In this document: positions 27,985 through 63,767 of the stretch, one piece after another
How the letters are laid out: each line of letters starts with the position of its first letter
How positions within the stretch are numbered: the first letter of the stretch is position 1
Source of the DNA: a virus
Virus record (IMG/VR): IMGVR_UViG_3300029002_000085
DNA length: 64,000 nt
Strand: one strand, 5' to 3'
Translations under genes and position numbers: made by a program
The notes under the pieces: generated by a model
The model's input: only the letters and a program-made list of their open reading frames with translations
What the model was told of the DNA's origin: nothing
Database searches by the model: none

Positions 27985-28052
27985 CACAAAAAATAAAAAA
28001 GGTTGTGCCAACATTTTGACACAACCTCAAGTTCAACAATAATTAAGAGAAA

Positions 28053-28502: not shown

Positions 28503-28837
28503 ATCATCATAACTACAATTTTTATCTATTGCACTAACAAAATCATATTTTAGATTTTCATCGGTTAGACTTAACCGATTGAGGAATAAACTTTTAGCGA
28601 ATTATTTGAAAAGTGGCGGTAACGAGTTAGCAACCGTGCGAATTTCAGCGTTTTGCGTTGCTATGCTGTCAAATAACTCTTTCATTTGCAAATATAGCAT
28701 CTTTTTTCGAAAGTACGAACTATCGGCGGCAGTTTTATAAAATCGACTGGCGAAAAAACAAATAGAATTTTCCAAAATAGCTTGGGATAAGCCATTAACG
28801 AAATACTTTCTTTTAAGAGCACAGTGGTTTACCCAAT

Positions 28838-28860
28838 AAAATTATATACCTTTGTAACAA
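28838..28860 (+). promoter_or_regulatory. Bacteroides-type promoter (TAnnTTTG -7 box) for the C-protein/methyltransferase operon
   Basis: tatatacctttgtaacaag lies about 20 nt upstream of the ATG at 28879. Confidence 0.4.
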
Positions 28861-28878
28861 GTTAAAGAAGATGTCGCA

Positions 28879-29079
28879 ATGAATCGGATAAAAGAAGCAT
28901 TGATTGAGGCGGGGATTAGTCAAACTGAATTGGCTAAACGACTTGGCAAAGGTTTTAATATGGTCAATCTATACGCCACGAACAAAGTGCAACCTCCTAT
29001 ACCCGTACTATACAGGATAGCGGAAATACTGAATGTGGATGTGCGTACACTTCTTGTACCTAACGAAATAAAAAAATAG
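28879..29079 (+). CDS. XRE-family HTH protein (controller C-protein-like)
   Basis: ISQTELAKRLGKGFNMVNLYATNKVQP HTH; 66 aa; 4 nt upstream of the methyltransferase ATG. Confidence 0.7.
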   Translation: MNRIKEALIEAGISQTELAKRLGKGFNMVNLYATNKVQPPIPVLYRIAEILNVDVRTLLVPNEIKK

Positions 29080-29083
29080 ACAT

Positions 29084-30217: not shown

Positions 30218-30457
30218 TCTGATATGTTTAATAAGAACTCTTGCATAAACTTGGGTATAATATTTCCCGTCAACCATATAATATGTTTCATTCTGAGGAA
30301 CTTCGGAATGAAGCAAGACTGCCCCGTCATTGAGTTTCGTCACTTTCGTCTCTTTGCCATGACGGTCTACTTGAATCTGTTCTGGATAGACCTTGGAAGC
30401 ACTACCATACCAAGTTTTAGTTATCCCTAAGATTTCAAAGTACTTCATCACTCGCAA
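30212..30457 (-). pseudogene. Degenerate inverted copy of the methyltransferase C-terminal segment (with a second copy in another frame at 30458-30640)
   Basis: The 81-aa ORF reads MKYFEILGIT...YTQVYARVLIKHIRS. The methyltransferase C-terminus reads EQFEILGITDRG...STYARLLIRKL. The minus-strand frame of 30458-30640 reads EILGQTQGDSGKELG...KPYARVLIRKIASDEVL. Confidence 0.4.
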
Positions 30458-30645
30458 TTTTTCTAATTAGTACTCGTGCATATGGTTTTTGAGGTATTCC
30501 GTTCTCTAAATAGTAAAGCTGACCATCTCGTAAACTGGGATTTAGTTTCTTTAATTCACGGGGGTATGGACGCAAACCAAGTTCTTTTCCTGAATCACCT
30601 TGTGTCTGACCTAAGATTTCAACTTAAAAACAAAAACAATAAATT

Positions 30646-31497
30646 ATGACACAACATAATACCATCAAGCTTTTTGAAGCTAAAAAAGTCCGTACTATTT
30701 GGGACGACAAAGATGAAAAATGGTACTTTTCCATAGTGGATGTGGTGGCTGTCCTAACCGATAGCCCTAATCCTCGTAAGTATTGGAGTGTCTTGAAAAC
30801 ACGTTTAAAAAAAGAAGGGAGTGAGTTGACTACAAATTGTAGTCAACTGAAAATGAAATCGGCTGATGGAAAGATGTATTTAACCGATGTGGCAGATACT
30901 CAGCAGCTTCTCCGTTTGATTCAGTCTATTCCATCGCCCAAAGCAGAACCGTTCAAGCAATGGATGGCACAAGTGGCGACTGAACGTCTTAACCAAATGC
31001 AAGACCCCGAACTCTCTATCAATCAAGCACTGGTGGACTATAAGCGGTTGGGGTATTCGGATAATTGGATTAATCAGCGTCTCAAATCCATAGAGATTCG
31101 TAAAGACCTCACGGATGAATGGAAGCGGCACGGATTGCAAGAGGGAGTGCAGTTTGCTACGCTGACCGATATTATTTATCAGACTTGGAGTGACATGACC
31201 GCCAAGGAATATAAGCAGTTCAAAGGTCTGAAAAAAGAGAACTTACGTGACAATATGACCAATAAGGAATTGGTGCTAAATATGTTGGCGGAACTTTCCA
31301 CCAAAGAAATATCTGAAAGTAAAAATCCGGAAACATTTCGGGAACACATGGATGTGGCGGAAGCCGGTGGTGAGATTGCCCGCAATGCCCGTATGGAGTT
31401 GGAAGCCAAGACGGGTAAGGCAGTCATCAGTCCGCTGAACGCCAAGACAGGCATTGCGCTCAATTCATCTCCGGAAGAAGAAGACACAAAAGAATAA
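30646..31497 (+). CDS. Bro-N domain protein (DinD-like / phage antirepressor-like)
   Basis: Bro-N N-terminus IKLFEAKKVRTIWDDKDEKWYFSIVDVVAVLTDSPNPRKYWSVLK with a long helical C-terminal domain. Confidence 0.7.
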   Translation: MTQHNTIKLFEAKKVRTIWDDKDEKWYFSIVDVVAVLTDSPNPRKYWSVLKTRLKKEGSELTTNCSQLKMKSADGKMYLTDVADTQQLLRLIQSIPSPKAEPFKQWMAQVATERLNQMQDPELSINQALVDYKRLGYSDNWINQRLKSIEIRKDLTDEWKRHGLQEGVQFATLTDIIYQTWSDMTAKEYKQFKGLKKENLRDNMTNKELVLNMLAELSTKEISESKNPETFREHMDVAEAGGEIARNARMELEAKTGKAVISPLNAKTGIALNSSPEEEDTKE

Positions 31498-31519
31498 TCC
31501 TAAAAAGTGAATCAATATC

Positions 31520-32692
31520 ATGAAGACAACATTGCATACAGAATGGACTGTCGAAGACATCTGTAAAGGATTTACCTACAACGAATTGGAAGGTAAAGGT
31601 CTGTTTGGATTGGACGGGCGGCTCACTATCCAACCCGAGTATCAACGCCATTACATCTACAACGATGGGAAACGTGATGTAGCGGTGATAGAATCCCTGC
31701 TGAAAGGTTATCCCATCGGACTAATCTATTTCAACCGGACTGTGGACGGACGATTTGAAGTACTTGACGGGCAGCAACGCATCACTTCTATCGGTCGGTT
31801 CGTTACAGGAAAATTCGCCATCAAGGATGAAGCGGATAACGTACAGTATTTCTCGGGATTGCCCGAAGAGCAGCAACAAAAGATTATGCAATCCTCTCTG
31901 CTGGTATATGAATGCGAGGGTGAAGAAAAGGAAATAAAGGAGTGGTTCAAGACCATCAATATTGTAGGCATTCCGCTCAAGGAGCAGGAATTGCTCAATG
32001 CCATCTATTCGGGCGAGTTCGTAAATGCAGCCAAGCGGGTGTTCAGTAATTCCCAAAATGCGGAAATACAGAAATGGAGTCATTATATCAAGGGAGATGT
32101 GAAACGGCAGGATTATCTGGCGGAAGCCCTCCGGTGGATTTGCGACAGTAAGGGGATGAGCATTGATGCCTATATGAGCATACACCGTCACGAGCCTTCC
32201 ACGGGAGAATTGGAAAGTTATTTCCGTTCTGTGATTGACTGGGTATCGGCTACCTTTACTATGGTAGAGCGTGACATGTGCGGCTTGGAATGGGGACGGC
32301 TGTATGAAACGTACCATGCCACCCCTTATAGCACCGTCCATGTCGCGGAACGGGTAAAAGCCTTGCAAGCGGATGAAAGTGTGCGGTGTCCCCGAAATAT
32401 TTACGAATATGTACTGGGTGGAGAAGAGGATAAGAAACTGCTTGACATCCGTATCTTTGAAGAATCAACCAAGCGGGCTGCTTACAAGCGTCAGACCGAA
32501 GCGGCTGAGAAACAAGGAATTTCCAATTGTCCGCTCTGTGCGTTGGGGAATAATGCCAACAAGACCCGCATTTACAAACTTTCGGAAATGGATGCCGACC
32601 ATGTGACTGCATGGAGCAAGGGAGGGGCAACCAGCATGGAAAATTGCGAGATGCTTTGTAAAACCCATAATCGTTCAAAGGGAAATCGGTGA
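31520..32692 (+). CDS. DUF262 (ParB/Srx-like) + HNH endonuclease fusion; GmrSD-like type IV restriction enzyme
   Basis: DUF262 signatures [12 protein letters not shown] and [14 protein letters not shown]-terminal HNH CPLC...[30 protein letters not shown]. Confidence 0.8.
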
Positions 32693-32738
32693 AAGTGTGT
32701 TATTTTGAGAGAGTTAAATCAATTAATTCTCTCAAAAT

Positions 32739-33662
32739 ATGAACAATAAAAAAACATTTCACGAAGTTTCCGAGATTTGGTGTGATGCAAAGCGTCCGAT
32801 AGTGAAGCATTCCACCCTATGTGCTTATCAGCTTACGTTACAAACACACCTATTGCCACGATTTGGCGCTGCGGAAAATATAACAGAGAAGGATGTCCAG
32901 CAGTTTGTGATAGACAAATGTACTTCCGGATTAGCAAGAAAAACAGTCCGGGATATAGTGGCAGTGCTCAAATCTGTTATCAAATACGGGAATAAGCACG
33001 GGATTTTCCATTTTGAAGAATGGGAAATCGAATATCCTACCCAAACAGAAAACAAACTGCCGCCCACATTGTCATTAAATCATCAGCGTATATTGATGCG
33101 TCACTTGCTGGAACAGCCCACTCCACAAAATATAGGTGTACTGTTGGCTCTCTGTACCGGAATGAGAATCGGTGAGGTTTGTGCTTTGAAATGGGAAGAT
33201 GTGGATTTTGCACAAAAGACAGTCATCGTGAAGCATACTGTAGGCAGAATATATAACTGTGAGTTGAAATCTACAGAAAGGGTTCACTCTTCCCCAAAAA
33301 CCAAGAATTCCTATCGTGAGATTCCTATATCCAAACAGCTTCTCCAAGCGTTGAAAATGGTAAGGAAACAATCTCAATCCCCATACGTGGTAGGCACTTC
33401 CACACAATCTAAAGAGCCCCGTTCTTATCGTGATTATTTTGGCAGGTTGCTAAAACGATTGGATATTCCCCACTTGGTCTTTCATGGACTTAGGCATACA
33501 TTTGCGACCCGATGTATTGAAAGCCAGTGTGATTATAAAACTGTCAGTGTCATACTCGGTCACTCAAATGTGGCAACGACACTTAATCTGTACGTTCATC
33601 CTAATCTCAATCAAAAGAAACGGTGTATTGACCGTATGAGTAATTTCTTGGGAATAACATGA
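32739..33662 (+). CDS. Tyrosine recombinase / integrase (307 aa)
   Basis: R-H-R-Y region HGLRHTFATRC...LGHSNVATTLNLYVHP and the Arg-I box LALCTGMRIGEVCALKWEDVD. Confidence 0.85.
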   Translation: MNNKKTFHEVSEIWCDAKRPIVKHSTLCAYQLTLQTHLLPRFGAAENITEKDVQQFVIDKCTSGLARKTVRDIVAVLKSVIKYGNKHGIFHFEEWEIEYPTQTENKLPPTLSLNHQRILMRHLLEQPTPQNIGVLLALCTGMRIGEVCALKWEDVDFAQKTVIVKHTVGRIYNCELKSTERVHSSPKTKNSYREIPISKQLLQALKMVRKQSQSPYVVGTSTQSKEPRSYRDYFGRLLKRLDIPHLVFHGLRHTFATRCIESQCDYKTVSVILGHSNVATTLNLYVHPNLNQKKRCIDRMSNFLGIT

Positions 33663-33684
33663 GTTAGTCTTGGACTCTATATAT

Positions 33685-33713
33685 ACATGGGGGACAAAAA
33701 ATGTCCTCCATGT
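33685..33713. terminator. Bidirectional hairpin terminator between the convergent integrase and relaxase genes
   Basis: acatggggga-caaaaaatg-tcctccatgt inverted repeat. Confidence 0.45.
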
Positions 33714-33732
33714 ATGTGATGCGCATGATTGA

Positions 33733-35088
33733 CTATAGCTTGAAGCCTTTATTCTTTTTCTGAATAGGCTTCAAGCCGACATTCTGTTGTAATCGTTCAA
33801 ATTGTTTCTTGAACCATTCCCCGATATGCAGTCCGTCAATGGCAAGTATCAGCTTTCCATTGTTTGTACCAACTTTGGCAGTAACATCATTCGTCTTGAA
33901 CTTACGCCTATGCTCATCGGAATAGAGTTCGCCGTTGTACGGCAATGGCTTGCCTGTCATTAAATGGGCGGTCTGTTCATGGGTAAAACCGACAGCAAGG
34001 CACAATTTCTCAATACGGAGCATAGCACGAAACCAAGGAAACCATTCTGTGGCTTTTATCAACAAGGCGTTAAGCCTTGATACTTCCGTTTGATGTTTTG
34101 TTACCGTCTCGTTCTTTTCCAGCAAGTGCCGTTGCTGCATTTCCAGCACTTGGCGGCTGTGGTCTGCCCGTATGGTCTGTATCTCGGCTTGCAGGGCTCC
34201 GATGGTCTCCTCGTGTGTGGCTACCTTCCTATGCAGGGCGGTGTTCTCCCTCTCCAGTGTCTTGACCTTGTTGCTCCCGAAAAGAGAACCGACACTCTCG
34301 GCGATGTTGGCGGCTGCGGTCGTGGCTGCCCCTTTCAGCCGTTCGGTCTGTATCTCTTTTTTCGCCCGTTCAAGCTCTTCCCGTGCCGTTTCTTTCCGTT
34401 CCTGCAATTCCACCACTTCCGTTTTCAGTTCCTCTGTTTGTCGCTTTATGTCACGGTAATATTGCTGCGTGGAAACGTGCCTCGCTTCCGAACCGTCCAC
34501 GCCCCGTTGTAAACCGTATTTTTTCATCGCAACAGCGTAGCTGTCTTGATAGGCTTTCAGTTTCAAGCGGCTCATGATGTCATCGGCGCACAGCCTCACG
34601 GTGTCGGTCGGCTTCTTGCGGTAGCGTTTCTTCGCCTGCTCCTCCCTTTTCTTCCGCTTGCGTTCCCCCTTGACTATCGGCACAAGTGTGACGTGCATGT
34701 GCGGTGTTTTCTCGTCCAAGTGCAGGTGAGCCGCCACGATGTTCTCCTTCCCGAACGTGTCGGCAAAATATTTGAGGTTGTCGGCGCACCACTCGTCCAG
34801 CCGTCCCTCCCGTTCGATGCGTTCCATGTCTTCGGGTGTTGCCGACACGTTGATGCGGATTGCCCGCACTTGGTTACTTCCGATTTTGCGTGTCAGTCCC
34901 GCTTCTTCCAGCCTCCTTTGGATAGCCGCCGAACGGTCTTTCACTCCTTCGGGATATTCGATGAGTTTTCGGTTTAGATGCGTGCGTGTGGGGTCAGCGT
35001 TCTTGGGTATGATGAAACGCTCTATGTGGGCGGTCGTCCCGCTGTCGGAACCGTGCGCCTTTTCCATGTGTAAAACTACGAAACCCAT
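33733..35088 (-). CDS. MobV-family (Mob_Pre) relaxase / mobilisation protein
   Basis: MGFVVLHMEKAHG...AHLHLDEKTPHMHVTLVPIV is the Mob_Pre His-triad region, with a long coiled-coil C-terminus. The probable start is the internal Met at 35088; the ORF track starts at 35151. Confidence 0.8.
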   Translation of the reverse strand: MGFVVLHMEKAHGSDSGTTAHIERFIIPKNADPTRTHLNRKLIEYPEGVKDRSAAIQRRLEEAGLTRKIGSNQVRAIRINVSATPEDMERIEREGRLDEWCADNLKYFADTFGKENIVAAHLHLDEKTPHMHVTLVPIVKGERKRKKREEQAKKRYRKKPTDTVRLCADDIMSRLKLKAYQDSYAVAMKKYGLQRGVDGSEARHVSTQQYYRDIKRQTEELKTEVVELQERKETAREELERAKKEIQTERLKGAATTAAANIAESVGSLFGSNKVKTLERENTALHRKVATHEETIGALQAEIQTIRADHSRQVLEMQQRHLLEKNETVTKHQTEVSRLNALLIKATEWFPWFRAMLRIEKLCLAVGFTHEQTAHLMTGKPLPYNGELYSDEHRRKFKTNDVTAKVGTNNGKLILAIDGLHIGEWFKKQFERLQQNVGLKPIQKKNKGFKL

Positions 35089-35151
35089 ATATTCTTCCTT
35101 TCTTTTTTGGCTTGTGCAACAATGATTTTTTTGTATCTTCAGGGGCGGCAA

Positions 35152-35300
35152 ATGCCGTCCCCGATGGGGTGTGCAGAGGGGCTTGCCCCTTGCCTTATTG
35201 GGGAATTTTCAGCGATACGTAGTATTGCGGCTCGGAAAATTCCCTAATAAGCTACGGTATTTTCTCCGTAAATACCCTGCGGCGTACCGTCCGTCTGCCT
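35152..35300. promoter_or_regulatory. Putative oriT / regulatory region upstream of the relaxase gene
   Basis: GC-rich non-coding stretch with inverted repeats (ggggaattttc...gaaaattccc; gcaaatgccgtcccc). The ORFs listed here look spurious. Confidence 0.35.
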
Positions 35301-35608
35301 TTCTGCGGTGGCTATCCCTGCCGTCTGCTTACCCATATAACCCCACCCTTATTTTTTCCCTTTCGGTCGGTGGGTGGCGGGGCGGTCGGATACAAGGTTT
35401 TCCCGATAAATACGCTCGCAGCGAAGCGAGAGGAAGATTTATCGGGAAACGGCGCAGCCGCCTGACCTTTTAGCCGACATAAAGCCCCGTGCTTGCTTTG
35501 CCTTTGTAAACGGAAATGATTGCTCCGCTTTCCTCTGAAAAGAGGAATAGAACCTGCAATATATATCACCATAGTGATATGTTTGCATGTTGGTATGTTG
35601 ATATATCA

Positions 35609-36001
35609 TCATGCTTTCCAACGGCTGTTGGGCTTGCCGTCCGAAACAACCGACACGAATACCTTCGTTTTCTCTTTTCGCCCGTGTATAATCCTTTCCA
35701 ACAACACTTTGCGGACTTTCGCCGCCCCGAACGATTCAACACGGAAAGCGAGGGCGGCTATCGTTTCGAGGTTGTAAACCTCCGCGCTGTATTTGTCCGA
35801 TATGCGGATAATGCGCTTTATGTCATATACGCTCAAAACTCCGCTTTTGCAGAGTGCCTTTATCCCTGCCCGAACCGTCGGGGCGATAACCCCGAACAGT
35901 TCGCAGATTTCCCGCTCGGTCATGGCGGTTGCACCTATATCGCTCGGCAGGGAGATATTGCCCTGCCCGTCCATCGTGATAATGTTCCTTTCTTCTTTCA
36001 T
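35609..36001 (-). CDS. HTH DNA-binding protein (putative excisionase/regulator of the mobilisable cassette)
   Basis: HTH-like MTEREICELFGVIAPTVRAGIKAL; starts at the internal Met 17 nt after the integrase stop; 130 aa. Confidence 0.45.
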   Translation of the reverse strand: MKEERNIITMDGQGNISLPSDIGATAMTEREICELFGVIAPTVRAGIKALCKSGVLSVYDIKRIIRISDKYSAEVYNLETIAALAFRVESFGAAKVRKVLLERIIHGRKEKTKVFVSVVSDGKPNSRWKA

Positions 36002-36018
36002 CGGGATTCTGTTTTTAA

Positions 36019-37251
36019 TTAGATGGTTCGGCAGATATTCTTCTCCATATCCTCCAACTTGTGCGACAAGGTTTCCATGTCTTGGCTTATCTTCTGGGCG
36101 GTGATTTTGGCGTAAATTTGGGTGGTTTTTATGTTCGTGTGTCCCAAAAGGCGGCTCACCGTTTCGATGGGTACGCCGTGCGACAGAAGTACGGTCGTGG
36201 CGTTCGTGTGGCGTGCCACATGGTAGGTCAAACGTACCTTGAAGCCGCATTGTCTGCCTATATCTTTGAGTATCTTGTTGCAGCTTCCGTTACTCGGAAC
36301 GGGGAAAACATGACCGTCCCTTGCCAGCCCCTTGTACTTTTCGATGATACGCTTGGGAACGTCCAAAAGGCGGATGTTTGATTCGGTGTTGGTCTTCTTT
36401 CTTCGGGTGATTATCCACAGGTTGCCGTCGAAGAATGTTTGCAGGCGGTCGACGGTGAGGTTCTTCACGTCCGAATACGCCAAACCCGTGAAAACAGAAA
36501 AGACGAACAAGTCCCGTACAAGCTCGTGGGTGGCGTTCTTCATCGGTGCGTCCATGAGCGTCTGTATCTCCGTTTGGGTGAGGTAGCCCCTATCCACGCT
36601 TTCGGGAGAGTTGATATATCCGGCAAAGGGATTGAACGGCAAACGCCCGTTGTTCCTTGCAATGGAAACGATGTGTTTCAACACAATCATGTAGCCCCAC
36701 ACGGTATTGGTGCGGCATTTCTTCTCCGTGCGCAGAAAATACTCGAAATCGTTGATGAACGTGAGGTTGAGTTCCTTTAACGGAATATCCTCACGCCTGT
36801 AGGTATGGGGCAAAAACTCCCGAATATGGTTGCAGACCGTCCGATAACGGGTAAATGTACCCTGCGCCCTGCTGTGCCCGACTTTCTTCTCAAACTCGGC
36901 GTTGTGCTGCTCGAACAGTTTCAGCAAAGTTTCCTGCTTGACGCCGATACCGAGATAGGCGTCTTTGAGTTTGGCGGCGGTAACATAACCGTCCGTCTGC
37001 ATTAACTCTTGATAGCGGCGGTTTACCTCCACACGGATTTTATCTACCGCAAGGTTGATTTTCTGTGCTTCGACGCTCTTGCCCGAAGCACGGCTGTTCT
37101 TCACGTCCCACAACCGTGGGGGAACGTCCATCTTGCAACTGAACTGTTTAATCTCGCCGTCCACCGTGATACGGCACATTAAAGGCAGGTTGCCGTTCGG
37201 CTTCTCGCTGCCTTTCTTCACGTAAAATAATACCTTGAATGTACTACGCAT
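36019..37251 (-). CDS. Tyrosine integrase of the Bacteroides IntDOT/IntN1/Tn4555 type (410 aa)
   Basis: N-terminal arm-binding-type domain (MRSTFKVLFYVKKGSEKPNGNLPLMCRITVDGE) and catalytic HVARHTNATTVLLSHGVPIETVSRLLGHTNIKTTQIYAKI. Confidence 0.8.
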   Translation of the reverse strand: MRSTFKVLFYVKKGSEKPNGNLPLMCRITVDGEIKQFSCKMDVPPRLWDVKNSRASGKSVEAQKINLAVDKIRVEVNRRYQELMQTDGYVTAAKLKDAYLGIGVKQETLLKLFEQHNAEFEKKVGHSRAQGTFTRYRTVCNHIREFLPHTYRREDIPLKELNLTFINDFEYFLRTEKKCRTNTVWGYMIVLKHIVSIARNNGRLPFNPFAGYINSPESVDRGYLTQTEIQTLMDAPMKNATHELVRDLFVFSVFTGLAYSDVKNLTVDRLQTFFDGNLWIITRRKKTNTESNIRLLDVPKRIIEKYKGLARDGHVFPVPSNGSCNKILKDIGRQCGFKVRLTYHVARHTNATTVLLSHGVPIETVSRLLGHTNIKTTQIYAKITAQKISQDMETLSHKLEDMEKNICRTI

Positions 37252-37825
37252 AACTCACTCCTTTTTTTGATTACAAAATTAGTTATTAGTGAGTTACCGA
37301 CAGCTATGTAAATCTACGCAAAACGCAGAAACAGAACTGTTTAGCAAGAAATCTGCACCCGTTACGGGAGTAACGAGGTGGTAACTGGACTTCTGCACCG
37401 TTTGGCTTCGAGGTGGTATTTCGTTGGCTCTGTCCCATAGAAAAACAAAGCGTAACGAACGCTCTATCAGCTAATTCGCTACGCTTTGCCCAAATTTACT
37501 TTTTCGCTATGTGTTTATTTTATACTTTTAGGAATTAACACTTCTGTTTTTTCAAAAATCATAATTATTGTTGCTTTTACAAGAACAGCTATAGCCAATA
37601 ACAAAAATATAAATGCAACAAAAGAAAATCTAAGCATTATATCACGCTGTACACTATTAGTCATACTAGGAGGAAGTAGTTTCTTATCTAACCATTCTTT
37701 AAATCTCATAGCTAATATATTTTTTTGCAAAAATACACTTTTTAATTAAATACAAGATTATTCAGCATAACTCCATTTTAATTTCGCATATTTCAAAAAT
37801 TGTTCATTTTTACAAAAACACATTG

Positions 37826-41869: not shown

Positions 41870-42577
41870 CTATTGCATTTCACGTTTAAATCTTTCCTCT
41901 AAATCAAAAATGGTTTCTCCACTATTACGCCGATAGGGCCTATCGGTATTTAACTGAAGTTCTTTCAGCTTTTTCCAATACCAGGGAAGGTACAAGTACA
42001 TATTCTTCAACTCCTTCAAGTTCTTATTTCCACAACACCAGCAACTCACACGATCAAGTAGCTCATATAGCCTTACTCCATCCTCATGCCAAACAAAGCC
42101 TTTTGTGTAACAGTACTGGAGTGCATCTGCTTCAGTAATGCCCCAATCACGAAGTGGTAAAACCCGATTTGGTCGTTTTTCCTTTTCAAAGCGATGGGTC
42201 TCATCGGCAGCAATACCGACATAATCAATTCCGTCTTTTGTGTGAGCTTTCAATGCACGAAGTTTTTCACTCGTTCCCCACCGGCATGTTCCCCCACACC
42301 AACTATATCCTTTTTTATGGATAATATTGGTCCCTCTTTTCTTAACCGGCCTTTCAAACATTGTCCAAAGAAAAGGTTGCTCCGGATGCAGTTCTGTATA
42401 TTTAATGCCAAGTTTTTTAAGAATTGGAAGAACAGCATCACGAGTGTTATAGATTGCCTGAAATTCCATACCTGTATCATAGAAAACGACTTCATCCAAC
42501 TGATATCCTTTATCTATTAGCATGAAAAGCATTGCCAAGGAATCCTTTCCAAAGCTGACTGAAGCATAATATTTCAT
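41870..42577 (-). CDS. PAPS-reductase-like / PP-loop ATP pyrophosphatase family protein (IbrA/DndC-like)
   Basis: PP-loop SFGKDS near the N-terminus and a C-terminal Cys cluster SCWCCGNK. Confidence 0.7.
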   Translation of the reverse strand: MKYYASVSFGKDSLAMLFMLIDKGYQLDEVVFYDTGMEFQAIYNTRDAVLPILKKLGIKYTELHPEQPFLWTMFERPVKKRGTNIIHKKGYSWCGGTCRWGTSEKLRALKAHTKDGIDYVGIAADETHRFEKEKRPNRVLPLRDWGITEADALQYCYTKGFVWHEDGVRLYELLDRVSCWCCGNKNLKELKNMYLYLPWYWKKLKELQLNTDRPYRRNSGETIFDLEERFKREMQ

Positions 42578-44798: not shown

Positions 44799-45551
44799 TT
44801 AGAATTTGAATTTGCATGATATATTATATTGAACGAGCTGCTTTGTTTTGTCTTTCCCATTAGTGGTTGCACTCTTTAGCAAAATACTATCACCAAAATT
44901 CTTTTTGATAAAGAGGATAGATTTACGTTCCTCTTCCTGATTCCTTATAGAAGCAAGCCCACCAGCGTTTACAAAAGTGTTCTTTTGCTCAAAATTATAC
45001 CGCAAATCGGTTAAAACCTTACGTTCTTTGTACTTCATGTAACAAGAAATCCAAAAATCTTCCTTCAAACGTATTTCCTCATTCCACCAAGTGTTTTTGT
45101 TATAGATTACTCCATAACTGCAACCGGTTATCATTTTCGAAAGAGAAAGAAAAGCGGATTCATCATACATTACCGGCGATATCCGAGCGGTGAAGCCAAA
45201 CAGATGTACATCCATCATACTGGCCATCTCAAATAATGACTGAATGATATTGGTTATCTTATCTTTATCCTTTATCCGGCTAGGTTCTCCTTTTTCCACA
45301 TAAATAGGTTTGCAGGCATGGACATCATCATCAAGCATGAAAAGTTCTCCAAAATGCTTTGCCATCCAGTTACGTTTCGGGATGAGGCCCATAACGTCGT
45401 CAGGATGAGTAACAATTTCACATTCCGGGTTAAATTGTTGATATAAGTCAGCTTGACTTTCAGCAACGCAAATGATAGGATCGTTCACCAACTTTTTAGC
45501 GAACACCCGGTCATGGCGTTTATGACTTGGTATTACTATCTTGCAGGGCAT
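44799..45551 (-). CDS. Hypothetical protein (250 aa)
   Basis: ORF overlapping the ParB-like gene by 32 nt. Confidence 0.45.
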   Translation of the reverse strand: MPCKIVIPSHKRHDRVFAKKLVNDPIICVAESQADLYQQFNPECEIVTHPDDVMGLIPKRNWMAKHFGELFMLDDDVHACKPIYVEKGEPSRIKDKDKITNIIQSLFEMASMMDVHLFGFTARISPVMYDESAFLSLSKMITGCSYGVIYNKNTWWNEEIRLKEDFWISCYMKYKERKVLTDLRYNFEQKNTFVNAGGLASIRNQEEERKSILFIKKNFGDSILLKSATTNGKDKTKQLVQYNISCKFKF

Positions 45552-56442: not shown

Positions 56443-56546
56443 AATTCTAATTTAATGGTTTGACTTTTAGCTCATTACATCAGTAAAGGTAATCGTTATT
56501 GACAAGTTTAGCAAACAGAAACTTCGCCATTTTAACGCCATTTTCA
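56441..56546 (-). promoter_or_regulatory. Conserved early promoter/operator element, copy A (full length), upstream of the Sak gene
   Basis: Read on the minus strand: AAAATGGCGTTAAAATGGCGAAG direct repeats, then TTTG-N20-TAccTTTa (Bacteroides -33/-7 like), then the ATG. Confidence 0.55.
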
Positions 56547-56679
56547 GGTAGTAAAAACTGCCTGTACGATATTGTACAGGCAGAAAAATAAGAAAATGAA
56601 TAATCCAATGTACCTTATGGAACGGCTACGCTTTGAAGGGTGTACGGCTCCCTGATTTATACATAATGTAAATGCTAGT

Positions 56680-56761
56680 GGACGGAACCGGAGTCGAACC
56701 GGTCTCACGGAATATTGGTGCACCTCACCGCAGTTTCAACCAACGATATACATATCCGCCC
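56680..56761 (-). tRNA. tRNA-like gene 1 (non-canonical D and anticodon arms)
   Basis: Minus-strand T-arm accgg-TTCGACT-ccggt and a 7-bp acceptor (gggcgga/tccgtcc with one G-U). The internal region does not fold into a 5-bp/7-nt anticodon arm by eye. Confidence 0.35.
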
Positions 56762-56862
56762 GATTAATTAAAAAGGTGCACTATCTTCACAGACCATACA
56801 CCCCAATCACAAACACAAAACAAAACTCATGAACTACTATAATTTAATTAGGATCAGAAGGG

Positions 56863-56929
56863 TGAATGGCGTGGGGATCGAACCCACATCACGCATATCT
56901 GCGTATGCTGCCAATTACACCAGCCATCC
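56863..56929 (-). tRNA. tRNA-like gene 2 (short, about 67 nt)
   Basis: Acceptor ggatggc/gccattc and T-arm gtggg-TTCGATC-cccac. The middle hairpin is acgca-gata-tgcgt, a 5-bp stem with a 4-nt loop. Confidence 0.4.
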
Positions 56930-57156
56930 GTTTTAAGTGAACTATTCTCACGAACCATTCACCTAGAACACAAACACAAAATAAAACACGACATTAACTA
57001 TTAAATAGCACTCTCACGAGCTTCTTGCTTCCAGATAGCCGTTCAAAGCACACCGGAATAGTATAGAACAATTAAAACTCAAATAACAGGGGCTTTAACC
57101 CTACAGCGTCCTTTTCGCTGGCAACATTAGTTAAACATAAAAAGAAAAATTCTCTG

Positions 57157-57254
57157 TGAAGGAACCCGGACTCGAACCGAGATGATAGATTACCTATGTA
57201 TGACTTTCTTCAATCTATCTGCATACTTGCGTTTACCAATTCCGCCATTCCTTC
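57157..57254 (-). tRNA. tRNA-like gene 3 (about 98 nt, long insertion between D and T arms)
   Basis: Acceptor gaaggaa/ttccttc, D-arm gcgg-aattggtaa-acgc and T-arm ctcgg-TTCGAGT-ccggg. A 64-nt middle region contains no canonical anticodon arm. Confidence 0.3.
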
Positions 57255-57346
57255 AGGTCGTAGCCAGACGCTTCCGGCTACATTGATTGTATATATAATG
57301 CAAATATATTTTCACCCTCACGGGTTACTTAACTCTGATTGAGTTG

Positions 57347-57417
57347 AGCCGGGAAACGGATTCGAACCGCTGACCTCATGTAGAAACATGCGCTCTAACC
57401 AACTGGGCTATCCCGGC
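57347..57417 (-). tRNA. tRNA-like gene 4 (71 nt; canonical acceptor, D and T arms; 14-nt hairpin in place of the anticodon arm)
   Basis: Minus strand reads GCCGGGA TA GCCC AGTTGGTTA GAGC G CATGT-TTCT-ACATG AGGTC AGCGG TTCGAAT CCGTT TCCCGGC T. The acceptor pairs perfectly (7/7), and the T-loop is a classic GGTTCGAATCC. Confidence 0.55.
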
Positions 57418-57479
57418 AGATGCCCGGCGAACCGGGCTAAATAAACATGACAAATACTAAAATTAAGCAATGCAGACCT

Positions 57480-57671
57480 TCACAGGCTATCTTTATTTTG
57501 TTTCCTATCTTCGTAGTATCGAAAACAGATATAATTCACTGATACGACAGTCACCAATACAAAAGCAGCAATAAATTCTTTCTTGCTAACTTCAATGCTA
57601 TCTATAAGATACAGTGTTGTCCATAAGGCAATGAACATCATGGCATACTGTATCACTTTAATCTTTTTCAT
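57480..57671 (-). CDS. Small membrane protein (2 TM)
   Basis: 63 aa; MFIALWTTLYLIDSI...AAFVLVTVVSVNYICF. Confidence 0.4.
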   Translation of the reverse strand: MKKIKVIQYAMMFIALWTTLYLIDSIEVSKKEFIAAFVLVTVVSVNYICFRYYEDRKQNKDSL

Positions 57672-57931
57672 TTCTTCCGTTTTTTAGATTTAACTTTCCT
57701 TCCCGCACATCGGCAATGAAGTAATACTTGAGCAGCATTACAATGCCACTTGCCGTTTTGGACATTAGTGGGCTTATCACTTTCAATCTTACCCGCTTCT
57801 ATAAGATTCATCAATTTCTTTTCCCCACCTACGTAATATGCAGACTTATCTTTTCCGAATGTCTCTGTAGAAAACAGACGGAGAATATTATCTAGCAATA
57901 TTTCAGCCATTTCACCCCTAATAGTTTCCAT
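57668..57931 (-). CDS. Hypothetical small protein
   Basis: 87 aa with a basic C-terminus. Confidence 0.35.
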   Translation of the reverse strand: METIRGEMAEILLDNILRLFSTETFGKDKSAYYVGGEKKLMNLIEAGKIESDKPTNVQNGKWHCNAAQVLLHCRCAGRKVKSKKRKK

Positions 57932-57944
57932 AGCCTTATATTAC

Positions 57945-58139
57945 TTACTCAACCCGTGTAACTGTAACAATACCACCGTTTCTATCAGACTTAATCCCCC
58001 ATTTTTTATCAGGCTCCTTCTCCTTTAGCCTGTAAGAAGTCAGATTCAAAAGATACGCCCTTTTGGAAATGGGAAAGTCTTTTTTGTCATCAATCTCCAT
58101 TTCACGGAGAATGCACATAATACTCTTTTCTTTTTCCAT
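57945..58139 (-). CDS. Hypothetical small protein
   Basis: 64 aa. Confidence 0.3.
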   Translation of the reverse strand: MEKEKSIMCILREMEIDDKKDFPISKRAYLLNLTSYRLKEKEPDKKWGIKSDRNGGIVTVTRVE

Positions 58140-58225
58140 ACTGATTGATTTTAAAATAAAAGCTCCCCCGAACCAATTCGATCGGCAGCATCACGCTTTA
58201 TTCGGAGGATTTACTTAACTTTGGG

Positions 58226-58603
58226 GTGTATAATCAAAAATTAAGTAATATGAGAGCAGAATTTTACAAAAAACACGCAGAAGATATACTTTCTAACCTT
58301 GAAAGCATACGAGCAACATTTAAAGAATTGGTTGATTCTAACAAGATAGCGCCCAAAAGCTATAAAGATAGTACTCCAGGAACAAATGATGTATATTCAT
58401 GCAAATTCAAAGAAGTACAAGATGATTTCATCAATCTTGTACATGCTTTTGACCAAGAAATGCCATTTTACAAAAAAATGATGTCAGAACCTCGACCTCG
58501 ATTTGATTCAGGTTTTTTAGATCATTATTACAATGATGATTGCAACAAACTCAAATCACTCATAGAAAAATTCATTCATTATCTCTCTTTTTATCTCGAT
58601 TAA
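58226..58603 (+). CDS. Hypothetical protein
   Basis: 125-aa ORF on the plus strand. Confidence 0.4.
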   Translation: MYNQKLSNMRAEFYKKHAEDILSNLESIRATFKELVDSNKIAPKSYKDSTPGTNDVYSCKFKEVQDDFINLVHAFDQEMPFYKKMMSEPRPRFDSGFLDHYYNDDCNKLKSLIEKFIHYLSFYLD

Positions 58604-58797
58604 ACCCGACTTTACAATCTGCATAATCCCGAAAAGCTTTCTGTATCATAGCAGGAAGCTTTTCGGCTACTACTTTAGCTGATTTTATCGGCATATTCTC
58701 TACACTTAATGAGAATGTGGCATCTTCCAAATTCTCATTCCTATCGTTTTTAATTGTTACTTGAACCATAAATATGTTGATTAATTAATGGGGCTAC

Positions 58798-59025
58798 TCA
58801 ATGAGTAAGATAGTCCAATAACCGTTCCCAATCAGACTCATCGCCTGACCCACATTCATCTTTGAAATGAGTGACACACCACAATCGGATGCGCCACTCT
58901 TTCAAAGGTGCGTTAATTACAAAAGAGACTGCTTTTTGGTAATCTCCATCGGGTTGCATTTTCTTAACAACTCGCATCTTAATCATTCGGATTAAGTATT
59001 TCCAAATAAACTTGGGTAATTTCAT
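58798..59025 (-). CDS. Hypothetical small protein
   Basis: 75 aa; ATGA overlap with the upstream lipoprotein gene. Confidence 0.35.
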   Translation of the reverse strand: MKLPKFIWKYLIRMIKMRVVKKMQPDGDYQKAVSFVINAPLKEWRIRLWCVTHFKDECGSGDESDWERLLDYLTH

Positions 59026-59834
59026 TATTGAGTTATTTTCAGAAAATCAGGAGCAATACCATAGAGCGGTGTTTTTCCATCCCATTTATCAATAAACTGC
59101 TTATACAGGATTTCTTTAGTCAACCCTTTCGATGTAATAAGAGCCTGTTCCGTTTTCAATCGTTCCAATTCATTTTGTTTCTTCTGCTCTTCAATTTTCT
59201 GATCGAGAACAGATATATTGGTATTTACTTCATTGCGACTATCAATCTTATCACGAACAGCTCTTGAAAACTCCAACTGTGCAGAAAAAGTAAGTAATTG
59301 TAATCCTCGTTTATCAAACTCTTTATCTACTATTTGCTCCAGTCTCTTTTCAAAAACTAACGAACCACCATCCGCCATCAGGCTATCAGTCTTATGTTTT
59401 CGGCTTTCCTCCTTAATAAGGTCATAAATACGAGGTTCCAAGATATTATCTTCCAACGATTGCATAAAGCCATCCTTTCCTGATGGAGTATCGGCTTTAT
59501 CAATATGCTTATTGTCAAATACAATATCAATAGCCCTATTTTTCATCACCTTATAGGAATAAGTCGGACGTGCTGTAAACTCCGTATTGTCAGCAGCCTT
59601 TAATGTTACTGGCTCTGCGAATTCTCCACGTTGGTCAAACAAAGGAACTTGAAATAGCTCCGTCCCCCATTCCCATGTAGATACTTTGCCCGAAACTACC
59701 TTAAAATCATCTTTCCCCTGTTTACCGTAATTCTCCATGAGCACACCAGCATAATTAGGAGCAACTCTTTTACACGATGCAAATAAAATAATGGCAATCA
59801 ATGCCAAAAACAGACAATCAATGTTTCTTCTCAT
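59025..59834 (-). CDS. Putative lipoprotein (signal peptide plus lipobox; SPFH/band-7-like helical C-terminus?)
   Basis: MRRNIDCLFLALIAIILFASC has a lipobox Cys; Lys/Glu-rich coiled C-terminal region. Confidence 0.5.
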   Translation of the reverse strand: MRRNIDCLFLALIAIILFASCKRVAPNYAGVLMENYGKQGKDDFKVVSGKVSTWEWGTELFQVPLFDQRGEFAEPVTLKAADNTEFTARPTYSYKVMKNRAIDIVFDNKHIDKADTPSGKDGFMQSLEDNILEPRIYDLIKEESRKHKTDSLMADGGSLVFEKRLEQIVDKEFDKRGLQLLTFSAQLEFSRAVRDKIDSRNEVNTNISVLDQKIEEQKKQNELERLKTEQALITSKGLTKEILYKQFIDKWDGKTPLYGIAPDFLKITQ

Positions 59835-59985
59835 TTTTCAGTGCTTTTATTAATTTATATGTGACAAAAAATATCGTGAACAAGATTACACCCACACCTA
59901 TCCACGCATTTACATGATTAAATATTCTATTTCCAACAAATAGACCGATGATGAACATCACAATTAGAGTTATGTAATTCTTCAT
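59818..59985 (-). CDS. Small TM protein (55 aa) overlapping the lipoprotein start
   Basis: MKNYITLIVMFIIGLFVGNRIFNHVNAWIGVGVILFTIFFVTYKLIKALKNEKKH; not in the ORF track because it is under 60 aa. Confidence 0.3.
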   Translation of the reverse strand: MKNYITLIVMFIIGLFVGNRIFNHVNAWIGVGVILFTIFFVTYKLIKALKNEKKH

Positions 59986-60105
59986 AATAATACGCTTAAT
60001 ATTAATTGATTAATAAATTTCCCCCGTTCCAAGATTATTCGCTAATAAAAAAGGAACAGGGGATTTTCTTATTTTTGAAGTGTCAAATCAAAAAAACAAG
60101 AAAAT

Positions 60106-60552
60106 ATGAATAATGAAGAAAAAGTAGTTTCATACTACAAAGAAACTTTAGAGAAAAAAATCGAATGGACTTTCAGACTCCAAAGCACTCTATTGACTGT
60201 TGCATCCGCTACTTTTGCTGTACTTGTTTCTTTAAGCAATCTTTCAACCAACAACGCTTGCAGTCGAATTTTACTATTGGTAGTAATATGTTCAAACGCA
60301 CTATCCATCCTTTTTTCGTGTATAACCATATACGAGAATCGAGCAATGAGCAACGTGATGATACGCAACGCTCAAAAACGGGTAGAAGAATATATCCTCT
60401 ATAGCTTATACAATTCCAAAATGACCGTAACGCCAGCCGTACCACGCAATAAATTCTTCGCTATTTGTGAGTCAATTTCCTACATTTCATTTCTATTTTT
60501 TATTATTAGTTTAACAGCCTATGCAATTTATAAGATACACACGCAGTTGTAA
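60106..60552 (+). CDS. Multi-pass membrane protein
   Basis: 148 aa with 3-4 hydrophobic helices. Confidence 0.45.
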   Translation: MNNEEKVVSYYKETLEKKIEWTFRLQSTLLTVASATFAVLVSLSNLSTNNACSRILLLVVICSNALSILFSCITIYENRAMSNVMIRNAQKRVEEYILYSLYNSKMTVTPAVPRNKFFAICESISYISFLFFIISLTAYAIYKIHTQL

Positions 60553-60568
60553 CGTCAATTAAACATTG

Positions 60569-60640
60569 AAGTGACGAGCGGATTCGAACCGCCGACCTCA
60601 TGTAAAAACATGTGCTCTAACCTGCCTGAGCTACATCACC
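60569..60640 (-). tRNA. tRNA-like gene 5 (paralogue of tRNA-like 4 with a different acceptor stem)
   Basis: GGTGATG TA GCTC AGGCAGGTTA GAGC A CATGT-TTTT-ACATG AGGTC GGCGG TTCGAAT CCGCT CGTCACT. The core from the D-loop to the T-loop is near-identical to tRNA-like 4. Confidence 0.55.
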
Positions 60641-61611: not shown

Positions 61612-61992
61612 ATGATTGATAGAATTAAAGAAGTTATAGCCTATTCGGGGCTATCTGATAGGGCATTTGCCCTCAAATGTGGTATTAAACAAAACACATT
61701 GAGTAGACAATTAGGAGGGGTAAGTGAGGTTAGTGCCTCAACTATTAATACAATATTGGATAACTACCAAGAAATATCCGCAGAATGGCTGTTAAGAGGA
61801 AAAGGCTCCATGCTTCTTCAAAAAGAAGAAACAGAACCAGGAATGGAGAAATTGAAAAGTATAGTATATACCATAGCCAATTTGCAGGATGAAATCAATG
61901 AAAAGACAGTGCTTACCCAACGGCTTTTGGAAGAAAACCAAAAATTAAAGGGTGAATTGGCTATGTTGAAGAATGAAAGAAATGTAGGATAA
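61612..61992 (+). CDS. XRE-family HTH transcriptional regulator with C-terminal leucine-zipper-like coiled coil (repressor-like)
   Basis: LSDRAFALKCGIKQNTLSRQLGG HTH, with a C-terminal LQDEINEKTVLTQRLLEENQKLKGELAMLKNE. Confidence 0.6.
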   Translation: MIDRIKEVIAYSGLSDRAFALKCGIKQNTLSRQLGGVSEVSASTINTILDNYQEISAEWLLRGKGSMLLQKEETEPGMEKLKSIVYTIANLQDEINEKTVLTQRLLEENQKLKGELAMLKNERNVG

Positions 61993-62370: not shown

Positions 62371-63240
62371 ATGGAGCAGACAAAAGAAAGTAAAAGAATC
62401 ATTGGCGGAAAAATGTATGTTATAAACATCAAGTCTAGATACGAACAAACGCCACAAAAATATGTTAAATTATTTGAGCAACTATATGCTAAAGATCCCC
62501 TCATATTATTACATAGTAATAGATATATCAGTATAAAACAGCTTCTTAAAAGCGAATATTTAGAGGATGACGGTACCCCAAGAATGCTATTAATCAAATT
62601 AATTTCATATGATATTCTTAATCCAGATGCTTTTTATGATAAAAAAACGAAAACACAGGTAAAGATTGACATTAATCCTGATATTGTTGCTAACCTAAAA
62701 GAGGTAGAGCTATATTTTATCCCTAAAGTGCACCGATTAATAGTCAGCATAAGCTCTAAAATCGGTATAAATCAAGTGATGAAATATCTTACCCATAGTT
62801 TTGCAGAAACAGCTAGTAATGGAGCTGTTGATATTAATATAGAGAAAAGTAGAGATATCATCACAAGAGTTTTAAACGCACATAAAATATTTTTAATTGA
62901 TGCAGATATAACTTTTTCAAATAAAGATTTTACAGAAGGATTTATTGCAAAGTTTGACAAAAAAATAAAAGATGCAAGACCAAGAAATGTTAAATTCAAA
63001 ATGGAAGGAACAGACGAAGAACCTCTTAAAAAAGAAGAAGATGGAATAATCGAAGCAATAGTCAACATGTCACGTAGTAACGGTACAATGATAGCTAGAG
63101 TACAAGAAAAAGAAAATGGAAAACCGATCAAGATTGATACAAAAGATTATCCTATGAGAATAGAAATTAAAGATACAGAAAAAAATTATTTTAATAAGAT
63201 ATACACAGAATTATGTAGTATATTTGGGCATAATCAATAA
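62371..63240 (+). CDS. Hypothetical protein (AT-rich cassette)
   Basis: 289-aa ORF in a GC-poor stretch. Confidence 0.45.
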   Translation: MEQTKESKRIIGGKMYVINIKSRYEQTPQKYVKLFEQLYAKDPLILLHSNRYISIKQLLKSEYLEDDGTPRMLLIKLISYDILNPDAFYDKKTKTQVKIDINPDIVANLKEVELYFIPKVHRLIVSISSKIGINQVMKYLTHSFAETASNGAVDINIEKSRDIITRVLNAHKIFLIDADITFSNKDFTEGFIAKFDKKIKDARPRNVKFKMEGTDEEPLKKEEDGIIEAIVNMSRSNGTMIARVQEKENGKPIKIDTKDYPMRIEIKDTEKNYFNKIYTELCSIFGHNQ

Positions 63241-63248
63241 CTAGAATC

Positions 63249-63767
63249 ATGAATGCTAAAGATGAATTTGGATGGAGAAGTATTTTTAAAGTATATACTA
63301 GTAAAGATATTTTAAAAGATTCTTTAGTACCAATACTTCTCTCTATTTCGATGATTATTATAGGTAACTTTAGTGATATCCCATCATATAAGTCATTAAG
63401 TACAATCATAGACTTATGTATTGGAATTATCCCTACCATTGTCTCACTCGTATTAGCTGCATATGCCATTTTATTATCTATATATTGCTCTAATCTACTA
63501 AATGATTTAAAAGATGATGAAGGAATAAAACTACTCTCTGGACTAAATTCCTCATTTGTAGTATGTATGATTATTATGTTTATTGGTATTTTTTTTAGTA
63601 TTATATTTAAATATATACATAGTCTAAACATCCAATTTTTATATAGCGATTATGTTAATAATACAGCATCATTCTTGTTACTTTACCTTCTATTATATTC
63701 TATATGGTCCATGAAGGATATAGTTATAAACATATATAATTTAAGCAAGGCTGCATTACTTTCTTAA
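63249..63767 (+). CDS. Membrane protein (AT-rich cassette)
   Basis: 172 aa with multiple TM helices; 8 nt after the preceding gene. Confidence 0.45.
   Translation: MNAKDEFGWRSIFKVYTSKDILKDSLVPILLSISMIIIGNFSDIPSYKSLSTIIDLCIGIIPTIVSLVLAAYAILLSIYCSNLLNDLKDDEGIKLLSGLNSSFVVCMIIMFIGIFFSIIFKYIHSLNIQFLYSDYVNNTASFLLLYLLLYSIWSMKDIVINIYNLSKAALLS

Follow-up and report, generated by a model that had tools for sequence, protein, structure and literature searches.

What use does a phage have for a gene that is shaped like a tRNA and has no anticodon to read with? The question is raised by IMG/VR virus record IMGVR_UViG_3300029002_000085, a stretch of 64,000 nucleotides (nt; hereafter the window), in which an earlier inspection of the bare letters (the sequence-only reading) had picked out five tRNA-like elements, here called t1 to t5, and had proposed that their anticodon arms are replaced by a hairpin with a 5-bp stem and a 4-nt loop. 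The usual explanations for phage tRNA genes are codon supply and escape from anticodon nucleases. In the present case the part that would decode is closed off and the rest of the molecule is kept, and related gut phages do likewise, in many forms and at fixed positions. Below we describe the elements, present evidence from distant relatives that their non-decoding form appears to be maintained, and weigh what such RNAs might do.

Five tRNA-like elements and their anticodon arms

All five elements lie on the strand of the early-left genes:

56679-56761, minus strand: t1, an acceptor stem and T arm with an irregular core, found by an acceptor/T-arm scan
56863-56929, minus strand: t2, a tRNA body of 67 nt; 39.1 bits
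57157-57254, minus strand: t3, a class II tRNA-Leu-type body of 98 nt; 38.1 bits
57347-57417, minus strand: t4, a tRNA-Thr-type body of 71 nt; 54.7 bits
60569-60640, minus strand: t5, a paralogue of t4 (short allele) of 72 nt; 53.7 bits

Scores are for full-length matches to the Rfam tRNA model RF00005 (gathering score 29 bits), t2 having been scored in a search of a smaller region and t3, t4 and t5 in a wider one. A 7-bp acceptor stem and a canonical T arm with a UUCGAAU-type loop are present in all five, and a regular D arm with its GG pair in t2 to t5, where the model matches the acceptor stem, D arm, variable loop and T arm in the usual way. As read from the sequence, C74 is present in all five and CCA is encoded by none.

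The departure lies in the anticodon arm. In t2, t4 and t5 this arm measures 14 nt against the 17 nt of a tRNA, and the model alignments delete the anticodon loop. What is left is a cap: CAUGU-UUCU-ACAUG in t4 (discriminator U73), CAUGU-UUUU-ACAUG in t5 and ACGCA-GAUA-UGCGU in t2 (A73). Minimum-energy folds contain the same 5-bp/4-nt hairpins, with fold z-scores of -3.98 for t4 and -2.41 for t2. The covariance model and the folds, which had been suggested as a check for a normal 7-nt loop, thus both returned the capped 4-nt loop, and for these three elements the sequence-only reading stands. It was also right that t4 and t5 share a near-identical core (44 nt) while their acceptor stems differ and are fully compensated by pair counts (GGUGAUG/CGUCACU in t5).

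For the two other elements the proposed geometry does not hold. Between its D and T arms t3 carries 47 nt of non-anticodon structure, not the 64-nt insertion first described, and the folds draw this centre either as a 19-nt loop or as a long extra arm; the body is class II, with A73 and the D arm GGCGGAAUUGGUAAACGC, which we take to be that of tRNA-Leu. In t1 all 7 bp of the acceptor stem are formed, G3:U70 among them, and the discriminator is A73; the stem is joined to the T arm by a core with a putative short hairpin, GGUG-AGGUG-CACC, and only a GUUGGUU stretch in place of a regular D arm. This 4-bp/5-nt hairpin, as claimed for t1, is plausible, since the t1-like element of the related locus L129 (5354-5431; L-numbers are labels of related loci or contigs) has a 9-bp hairpin with a GCGC loop there. 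As a tRNA t1 itself is not significant (its sole Rfam match is to tRNA-Sec, 17 bits, E=2.3).

A 5-bp stem with a 7-nt loop carrying U33, an anticodon and R37 is therefore found in none of the five: the loop has 4 nt in t2, t4 and t5, t3 has 19 nt or no arm, and t1 is irregular. Of the five, ARAGORN reports t4 and t5 alone, each as 'tRNA-???' with a two-base 'anticodon' (tc in t4), and neither ARAGORN nor the Rfam tRNA model finds a canonical tRNA in the 64-kb window. Megablast of the region against annotated phages returned no match. Distant blastn returned only tRNA-Thr matches for t4, which resembles annotated phage tRNA-Thr genes, and one terminator module, and separate searches with t1, t2 and t3 gave nothing useful.

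Maintenance of the capped fold in distant relatives

When viral contigs were scanned with an exact pattern for the t4/t5 arm, 106 DNA stretches matched, nearly all from human-gut samples, and the same pattern, scanned against one genome per species, matched Bacteroides xylanisolvens XB1A, B. congonensis and metagenome-assembled Bacteroides genomes. The copies in XB1A and B. congonensis are prophage copies. From these matches in Bacteroides genomes we conclude that the window is that of a temperate Bacteroides phage. The elements are thus present in relatives; their absence from related phages had been named beforehand as a sign of pseudogenes.

The sequence-only reading took the compensated acceptor stems as evidence of selection on structure and against decay. 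We reach the same view from distant relatives, close ones being uninformative. Using the rad52-like protein we recovered eight distant syntenic relatives, whose rad52 is 62-73% identical to that of the window in nucleotides. All eight have the same layout, and each has one to five tRNA-model matches (34-69 bits), placed where t5 would stand and in the gap that precedes rad52. The bodies are mostly 65-70 nt or 87-162 nt long, compared with the usual ~73-76 nt; the canonical exceptions are a tRNA-Thr(CGU) in L129, a tRNA-Phe(GAA) in L133 and a tRNA-Arg(CCU) in L132. Window positions 57515-57013 are colinear with L129 4576-5099, and at the t4 position L129 has its canonical tRNA-Thr(CGU) (4673-4745), also with U73, which makes t4 the positional orthologue of a normal tRNA-Thr(CGU).

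Two lines of evidence suggest that the capped form is kept as such. First, in an alignment of t4/t5-type short forms that includes L130, 97.6% of the cells of the capped cloverleaf pair and nine pairs are changed on both sides, among them the loop-closing pair (U-A to G-C in L130) and a D-stem pair (G-C to A-U). These values were not attained in any of 500 shuffles, and registers slid along the alignment are only 32-54% paired. Second, the loop varies in sequence and in length (UUCU, UUCC, UUUU, UUUUU and UUUGG), and that of t2 is GAUA or GGUA in relatives. The stem would thus be maintained and the 4-nt loop unconstrained, and given the covarying closing pair and the drifting loop it seems reasonable to conclude, with the sequence-only reading, that these RNAs cannot decode. 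Capped arms also recur independently in distant relatives (CAUGG-UUUU-CCAUG in L130, CCGGA-AGU-UCCGG in L132, UCUCA-AAA-UGAGA in L136 and the 9-bp hairpin of the L129 t1-like element), and in all eight Leu-type bodies of these relatives the D arm of tRNA-Leu and A73 are retained on wholly different acceptor stems. Taken together, these comparisons argue that the elements are tRNA bodies that do not decode and are nevertheless maintained, as decaying pseudogenes would not be.

The anticodon position as a site for modules

In the relatives' bodies the anticodon region is canonical, capped or expanded by 20-100 nt. The t4 body alone is capped in the window, a canonical tRNA-Thr(CGU) in L129 and expanded in L133, where the CAUG stem is kept and ~90 nt replace the tetraloop. 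An acceptor/T-arm scan showed that t5 is a long allele of 134 nt, with acceptor, D and T arms unchanged, in most of the close relatives (about 60 loci). Examples of the long allele are:

L001 3964-4097, minus strand
L123 1224-1357
L129 3069-3201

In this allele the anticodon arm runs on into a closed 7-bp stem (UGUGGUG/CACCACA) that holds a T-arm-like hairpin, UGAGAG-UUCGAGU-CUCUCA, and a D-arm-like hairpin, CUCUU-AGCUUAACGG-AAGAG. Between the close clade and L129, whose rad52 is 73% identical, the nested module has 5 changes in 67 nt, none of them in the hairpin or closing stems. It would form a second 'elbow', and it could have originated as a domain-swapped tandem pair of tRNAs. Similarly, t3 occurs in relatives with at least three different central parts, one of which, an anticodon-type stem around a GGG-N8-CCC hairpin, recurs in L129 with its outer stem covarying. 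We rejected introns as an account of the inserts: their removal restores no canonical loop, and no ribozyme or intron family matches at E<=0.05.

A possible role in trans

With a probability of roughly 0.4, the elements are excised by host tRNA enzymes and serve in trans as stable tRNA mimics or chassis. The acceptor/T-arm/elbow half is the part that would be recognised by RNase P, RNase Z and the CCA-adding enzyme, and because this half is intact the host should excise the RNAs like ordinary tRNAs: the early transcript would be cut, CCA would be added, and the products would be stable L-shaped RNAs of ~67-98 nt. Their capped loop would pair with no codon and would offer no substrate to anticodon nucleases. 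The tRNA body would then be a self-processing, nuclease-resistant chassis with interchangeable modules at the anticodon position, the tetraloop-capped forms of the window being the minimal version, and the products would be trans-acting tRNA mimics. LeuRS, AlaRS and SerRS ignore the anticodon, and A73 with the D-arm/core geometry constitutes the recognition elements of LeuRS. Possible partners are such anticodon-independent synthetases (LeuRS for t3, possibly AlaRS for t1) or host enzymes that attack tRNA acceptor ends. We favour action in trans because the anticodon helix and the D arm and core are kept better than processing alone would require, and because complex anticodon-site modules are conserved and the Leu-type identity set is retained. 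That the array ends in a strong terminator argues that it is more than a spacer between two mRNAs.

More tentatively, the elements may belong to a family of non-coding RNAs in temperate Bacteroides phages, natural modular chassis that the host tRNA machinery would excise and stabilise, with the anticodon arm as a plug-in site that would take a tetraloop cap, structured inserts of 20-100 nt or a second T/D 'elbow'. At least the Leu-type members would be aminoacylated and yet never decode, and the trans-acting mimics would serve as amino-acid carriers or as sponges for tRNA-binding proteins. They would then form a new class, of which the literature searched holds no phage example.

Several observations weigh against a role in trans. 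The near-invariance of the array in 43 distinct close relatives has been withdrawn as a sign of selection because the neighbouring rad52 is equally 99-100% identical there, so that conservation among close relatives carries no information on selection; their lower overall identity ('87%') came from a replaced, non-homologous segment upstream of t4. The canonical tRNAs of L129 (Thr), L133 (Phe) and L132 (Arg) stand at the same positions as the elements, and such occupants fit the idea of 'any tRNA-shaped processing site' equally well or better. G3:U70 of t1 is not kept in the L129 homologue, which has A3-U70, and since ThrRS needs the anticodon, charging of t4 and t5 is unlikely. The ~50 open reading frames (ORFs) of the window scanned with Pfam, PHROGs and PADLOC yielded recombination, DNA-modification and restriction-modification genes and nothing related to tRNA: no tRNA enzyme, Ro60/TROVE protein or reverse transcriptase was found among them, most of the structural and small ORFs lying outside this set. 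Finally, each of the five elements is preceded by a stable hairpin, whose end lies 4-14 nt upstream, and in L129, L132 and L136 a gap of 20-26 nt separates the t5-position element from the start codon that follows; both facts favour a role for the elements in processing in cis.

Layout of the array and a possible role in cis

The leftward early block starts beside a divergent helix-turn-helix (HTH) repressor-like gene (61612-61992, plus strand). From the repressor, the minus-strand order is small ORFs, t5, variable small ORFs with a lipoprotein gene, and then t4, t3, t2 and t1 in tandem with no ORF between them. After t1 come a terminator-like hairpin and, on the same strand, rad52-like, RecE-like exonuclease and single-stranded DNA-binding protein (SSB) genes. 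The spacers hold the following features:

57422-57437, minus strand: hairpin GCCCGG-UUCG-CCGGGC, 4 nt upstream of t4 (fold)
57301-57308, minus strand: TATATTTG, a Bacteroides-type -7 box by consensus match only, between t4 and t3
57260-57281, minus strand: 9-bp hairpin, 5 nt upstream of t3 (fold)
56934-56987, minus strand: Module A, a GU-rich motif and then a GUGA-tetraloop hairpin, ending 4 nt upstream of t2
56770-56826, minus strand: Module B, the paralogue of Module A, in which the GU-rich motif and GUGA-loop hairpin are followed by a U5 tract; its end lies 8 nt upstream of t1
56558-56583, minus strand: intrinsic-terminator-like hairpin of 10 bp followed by U5, ~100 nt 3' of t1 and before rad52 (terminator scan and fold)

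In relatives, changes in the GCCCGG-UUCG-CCGGGC hairpin leave its stem paired, and the stretch 57255-57346 has a fold z-score of -3.61. The spacer motif that the sequence-only reading had noticed is indeed shared, with copies at 56809-56826 and 56970-56987 where 0.02 would be expected. The hairpins of Modules A and B, as read from the folds, differ by compensatory changes, and Module A is 90.8% identical to L129 5270-5333, rad52 being only 72.8% identical. In MT836424, an unrelated faecal phage, this module is found after the stop codon of an ORF (L128 1657-1709), a position that makes the duplicated module look like a terminator-type element. The conserved linear motif beside a GNRA-type hairpin recalls lambdoid nut sites. 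Of the 16 CGUGAG hexamers in the window, four fall on the minus strand inside a 620-nt part of the array, where ~0.08 would be expected. The Bacteroides-type -7 promoter consensus is TAnnTTTG, and a pattern scan found just one such box on the minus strand; a sigma-70 promoter scan did no better than shuffles.

The main rival, a serious candidate though rated somewhat less likely, takes up the processing signals suggested by the sequence-only reading: the bodies would serve in cis alone, as punctuation that lets RNase P and RNase Z cut a long early transcript at fixed points. Upstream RNAs would gain a protective 3' hairpin, downstream mRNAs would gain short leaders and the conserved spacers would be released, with decoding switched off so that translation is undisturbed, much as in plant mitochondrial t-elements, mascRNA and engineered tRNA-guide-RNA arrays. 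The hairpins just upstream of all five elements agree with this, as do the short distances from the t5-position elements to the next ORF and the 15 nt between the end of the L129 t1-like element and a DUF3268 ORF. The interchange of canonical, capped and expanded versions at orthologous positions and the standing of Module A as the region's best-conserved piece across distant relatives point the same way. However, RNase P and RNase Z require no anticodon arm, and here that arm is kept as a perfect covarying helix. Nor does punctuation readily explain why modules as complex as the nested T/D elbow of the long t5 allele are conserved, why the Leu-type D arm and A73 are conserved beyond the needs of processing, or why four elements stand in tandem, with a terminator at the end and no ORF between them. 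The roles in trans and in cis are not mutually exclusive.

Less likely explanations

A role at the level of the DNA, in which the elements are recombination anchors or attachment-type sites and the t4/t5 direct repeats bracket a variable small-ORF cassette, appears improbable. It draws on the facts that tRNA genes are common integrase targets in Bacteroides, that the t5-t4 interval (57418-60568 in the window) varies from 1608 to 3151 nt among relatives with differing small-ORF content, that a mosaic breakpoint lies just upstream of t4 in close relatives and that the window contains an apparent NBU-like mobilisable island. In addition, some t5 alleles carry the exact t4 core, which indicates gene conversion between these direct repeats. 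Against these stand the compensatory changes, which keep RNA pairing and not DNA sequence. The integrases lie more than 16 kb from the elements, none adjoins the array (which tells against the att-like role once suggested for it), and no tRNA-like sequence is found at the borders of the island. The 4 bp between the inverted repeats are also too short for the overlap region of a tyrosine recombinase.

That the elements are tRNA-Thr and tRNA-Leu pseudogenes, their anticodon loops lost by deletion or insertion and their sequences now drifting, is hardly probable. The canonical tRNA-Thr(CGU) that is the positional orthologue of t4 would suit such an origin, t1 is barely tRNA-like, one copy in another lineage (L115) has an acceptor mismatch, and persistence within a close clade that is 99-100% identical proves nothing. 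But decay does not account for 97.6% pairing and nine two-sided pair changes across lineages whose rad52 is ~71% identical, for capped arms that arose or persist in several separate bodies and lineages, or for non-canonical bodies that outnumber canonical ones in eight of eight distant relatives.

Decoys for anticodon nucleases, the least likely of the uses first suggested, and doublet or quadruplet decoding after the closing pairs open are very unlikely: phage tRNAs with altered anticodon loops that escape nucleases do exist, and some variants can be forced by ARAGORN into 6- or 7-nt loops, read as (tc), (tt), Phe AAA, Lys UUU (L111) or Gln UUG (L040), but the loop that such nucleases recognise and cut is absent, the covarying closing pair suggests that what is maintained is the 4-nt loop, genes that are otherwise near-identical differ in loop sequence, and the forced readings need 3-4-bp stems and lack U33 and R37. 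The suggested role as primers is disfavoured as well, since no reverse transcriptase is annotated among the ORFs nearby.

Other lineages and automated tRNA calls

Short arms on a Thr/Ile-type body occur in 11 further viral contigs of four other lineages. In L113 and L115 the arm has a 6-bp stem and a GCAA tetraloop, and the element heads an otherwise normal tRNA array; phage contigs of 128-198 kb have a 5-nt loop on which ARAGORN forces tRNA-Phe(AAA). We hold the recurrence in other lineages with moderate confidence, some of these arms also allowing a reading with a 4-bp stem and a 7-nt loop. As a separate observation, other Bacteroidota-associated contigs, L110 (3410-3519, minus strand) and L124/L117, have tRNA bodies in which a D-loop insertion of 20-45 nt is combined with an anticodon arm cut down to CCA-AUUU-UGG or GUGG-UUUA-CCAC.

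Genes of this kind are mislabelled or overlooked by gene finders. Differences of one base in the capped loop lead ARAGORN to call Lys(UUU) at L111 3302-3375, Gln(UUG) at L040 4093-4163, Phe(AAA) at L107 2181-2253 and Asn(AUU) at L135 5414-5489. Since an isotype can hinge on one loop base, automated inventories of phage tRNAs likely contain such false isotypes, and counts of phage tRNAs are inflated or distorted.

Other genes of the window and of related loci

Annotation of the window ORFs identified terminase, portal and major head genes, as expected of a tailed phage; the terminase is closest to those of Flavobacterium phages and of an uncultured human faecal phage. Within positions 28800-37300 there appears to lie, inside the phage, an NBU-like mobilisable island or a defence island, which contains:

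29084-30217: EcoRI-type adenine methyltransferase
30646-31497: Bro-N/PDC-S13 protein
31520-32692: GmrSD-HNH type restriction enzyme
32739-33662: tyrosine integrase
33733-35151: Mob_Pre relaxase
36019-37251: second tyrosine integrase, with an Arm DNA-binding domain

The tRNA-like elements were rejected as the attachment site of this island, for which neither informative direct repeats nor a tRNA-like border were found. Possible DNA hypermodification genes lie at 26661-28014, 41870-42577 and 44799-45551 (TET-associated glycosyltransferase, phosphoribosyltransferase-like, NAD-dependent epimerase and PAPS-reductase-like), and several ParB-N nuclease-like proteins are also encoded in the window. 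Adjoining the repressor region, 62371-63767 encodes a DUF4747 protein and then a 172-aa multi-pass membrane protein; the pair has no PADLOC match and could be a prophage accessory or exclusion module. Among related loci, L136 (9529-11724) has a DEAD/ResIII helicase gene with an intein-type homing-endonuclease insertion (Hom_end_hint, LAGLIDADG), and L135 (9497-9633) gives a weak tmRNA-model match (20.6 bits) downstream of its recombination genes.

Comparison with known systems

In the literature searched (full text) we found no prior description of phage tRNA-like genes without an anticodon, and a survey of structured RNAs in viromes mentions tRNA-like candidates in general terms only. Where tested, membership in each of the closest known systems failed on a defining feature. 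That related phages keep such bodies at the same genome positions points to a previously undescribed use of the tRNA shape itself. Action in trans would make the elements a new kind of tRNA mimic encoded by phages, in one of the most abundant genera of the human gut; action in cis would make them the counterpart, in a bacterial virus, of the 'tRNA punctuation' of organelles. B. xylanisolvens XB1A, a lysogen that can be cultivated, allows direct tests.

The first such system is that of the YrlA-type Y RNAs, which are non-decoding and have a tRNA-like domain that is modified and cut by tRNA enzymes, with the order permuted to T arm and then D arm; some are phage-encoded (Chen et al. 2014, PMC4201824). 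The YrlA model (Rfam RF02553, gathering score 69 bits) has no match in window 56500-57500 at E<=10. The nested module of the long t5 allele also places a T arm before a D arm, and it is because of this shared order that it matches weakly, at 21.8 bits. The relatives reach only 21.8 and 28.3 bits, and the match in L133 is the T arm of one tRNA-like element and the D arm of the next read together; we therefore speak of resemblance and not of membership. The elements of the window differ in being unpermuted, in having a free acceptor end and in lacking a Ro60-binding stem, and no TROVE gene is found among the annotated ORFs, which are part of those in the window.

The tRNA-like domain of tmRNA is similar in having an acceptor stem and a T arm with the anticodon arm replaced, and t1 has G3:U70 with A73. 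In contrast to tmRNA (~260-400 nt), the elements measure 67-98 nt and have neither a tag reading frame nor pseudoknots; ARAGORN finds no tmRNA and the Rfam tmRNA model has no match in the window, where G3:U70 is confined to t1 among the five.

The MALAT1 mascRNA and the viral tRNA-like RNAs of MHV68 are tRNA-like processing elements. So are the t-elements of plant mitochondria (PMC1920247). Elements of this class are tRNA-shaped and non-decoding, often with a short or degenerate arm, and RNase P and RNase Z cuts at them set the ends of the flanking RNAs. Those cases are eukaryotic, organellar or herpesviral, whereas here we find tandem phage arrays in which D arm, core and anticodon stem are well preserved and modules can be exchanged.

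tRNAs of T5-type phages have altered anticodon loops that escape host anticodon nucleases. They resemble the present elements in being phage-encoded and in having an anticodon region unlike that of the host, but they keep a 7-nt loop and decode. Lastly, engineered tRNA scaffolds and polycistronic tRNA-guide-RNA arrays carry cargo at the anticodon arm for processing or stability, or use tRNAs as cut sites. Those scaffolds are artificial, and the phage elements, if our present reading is right, would be their natural counterpart.

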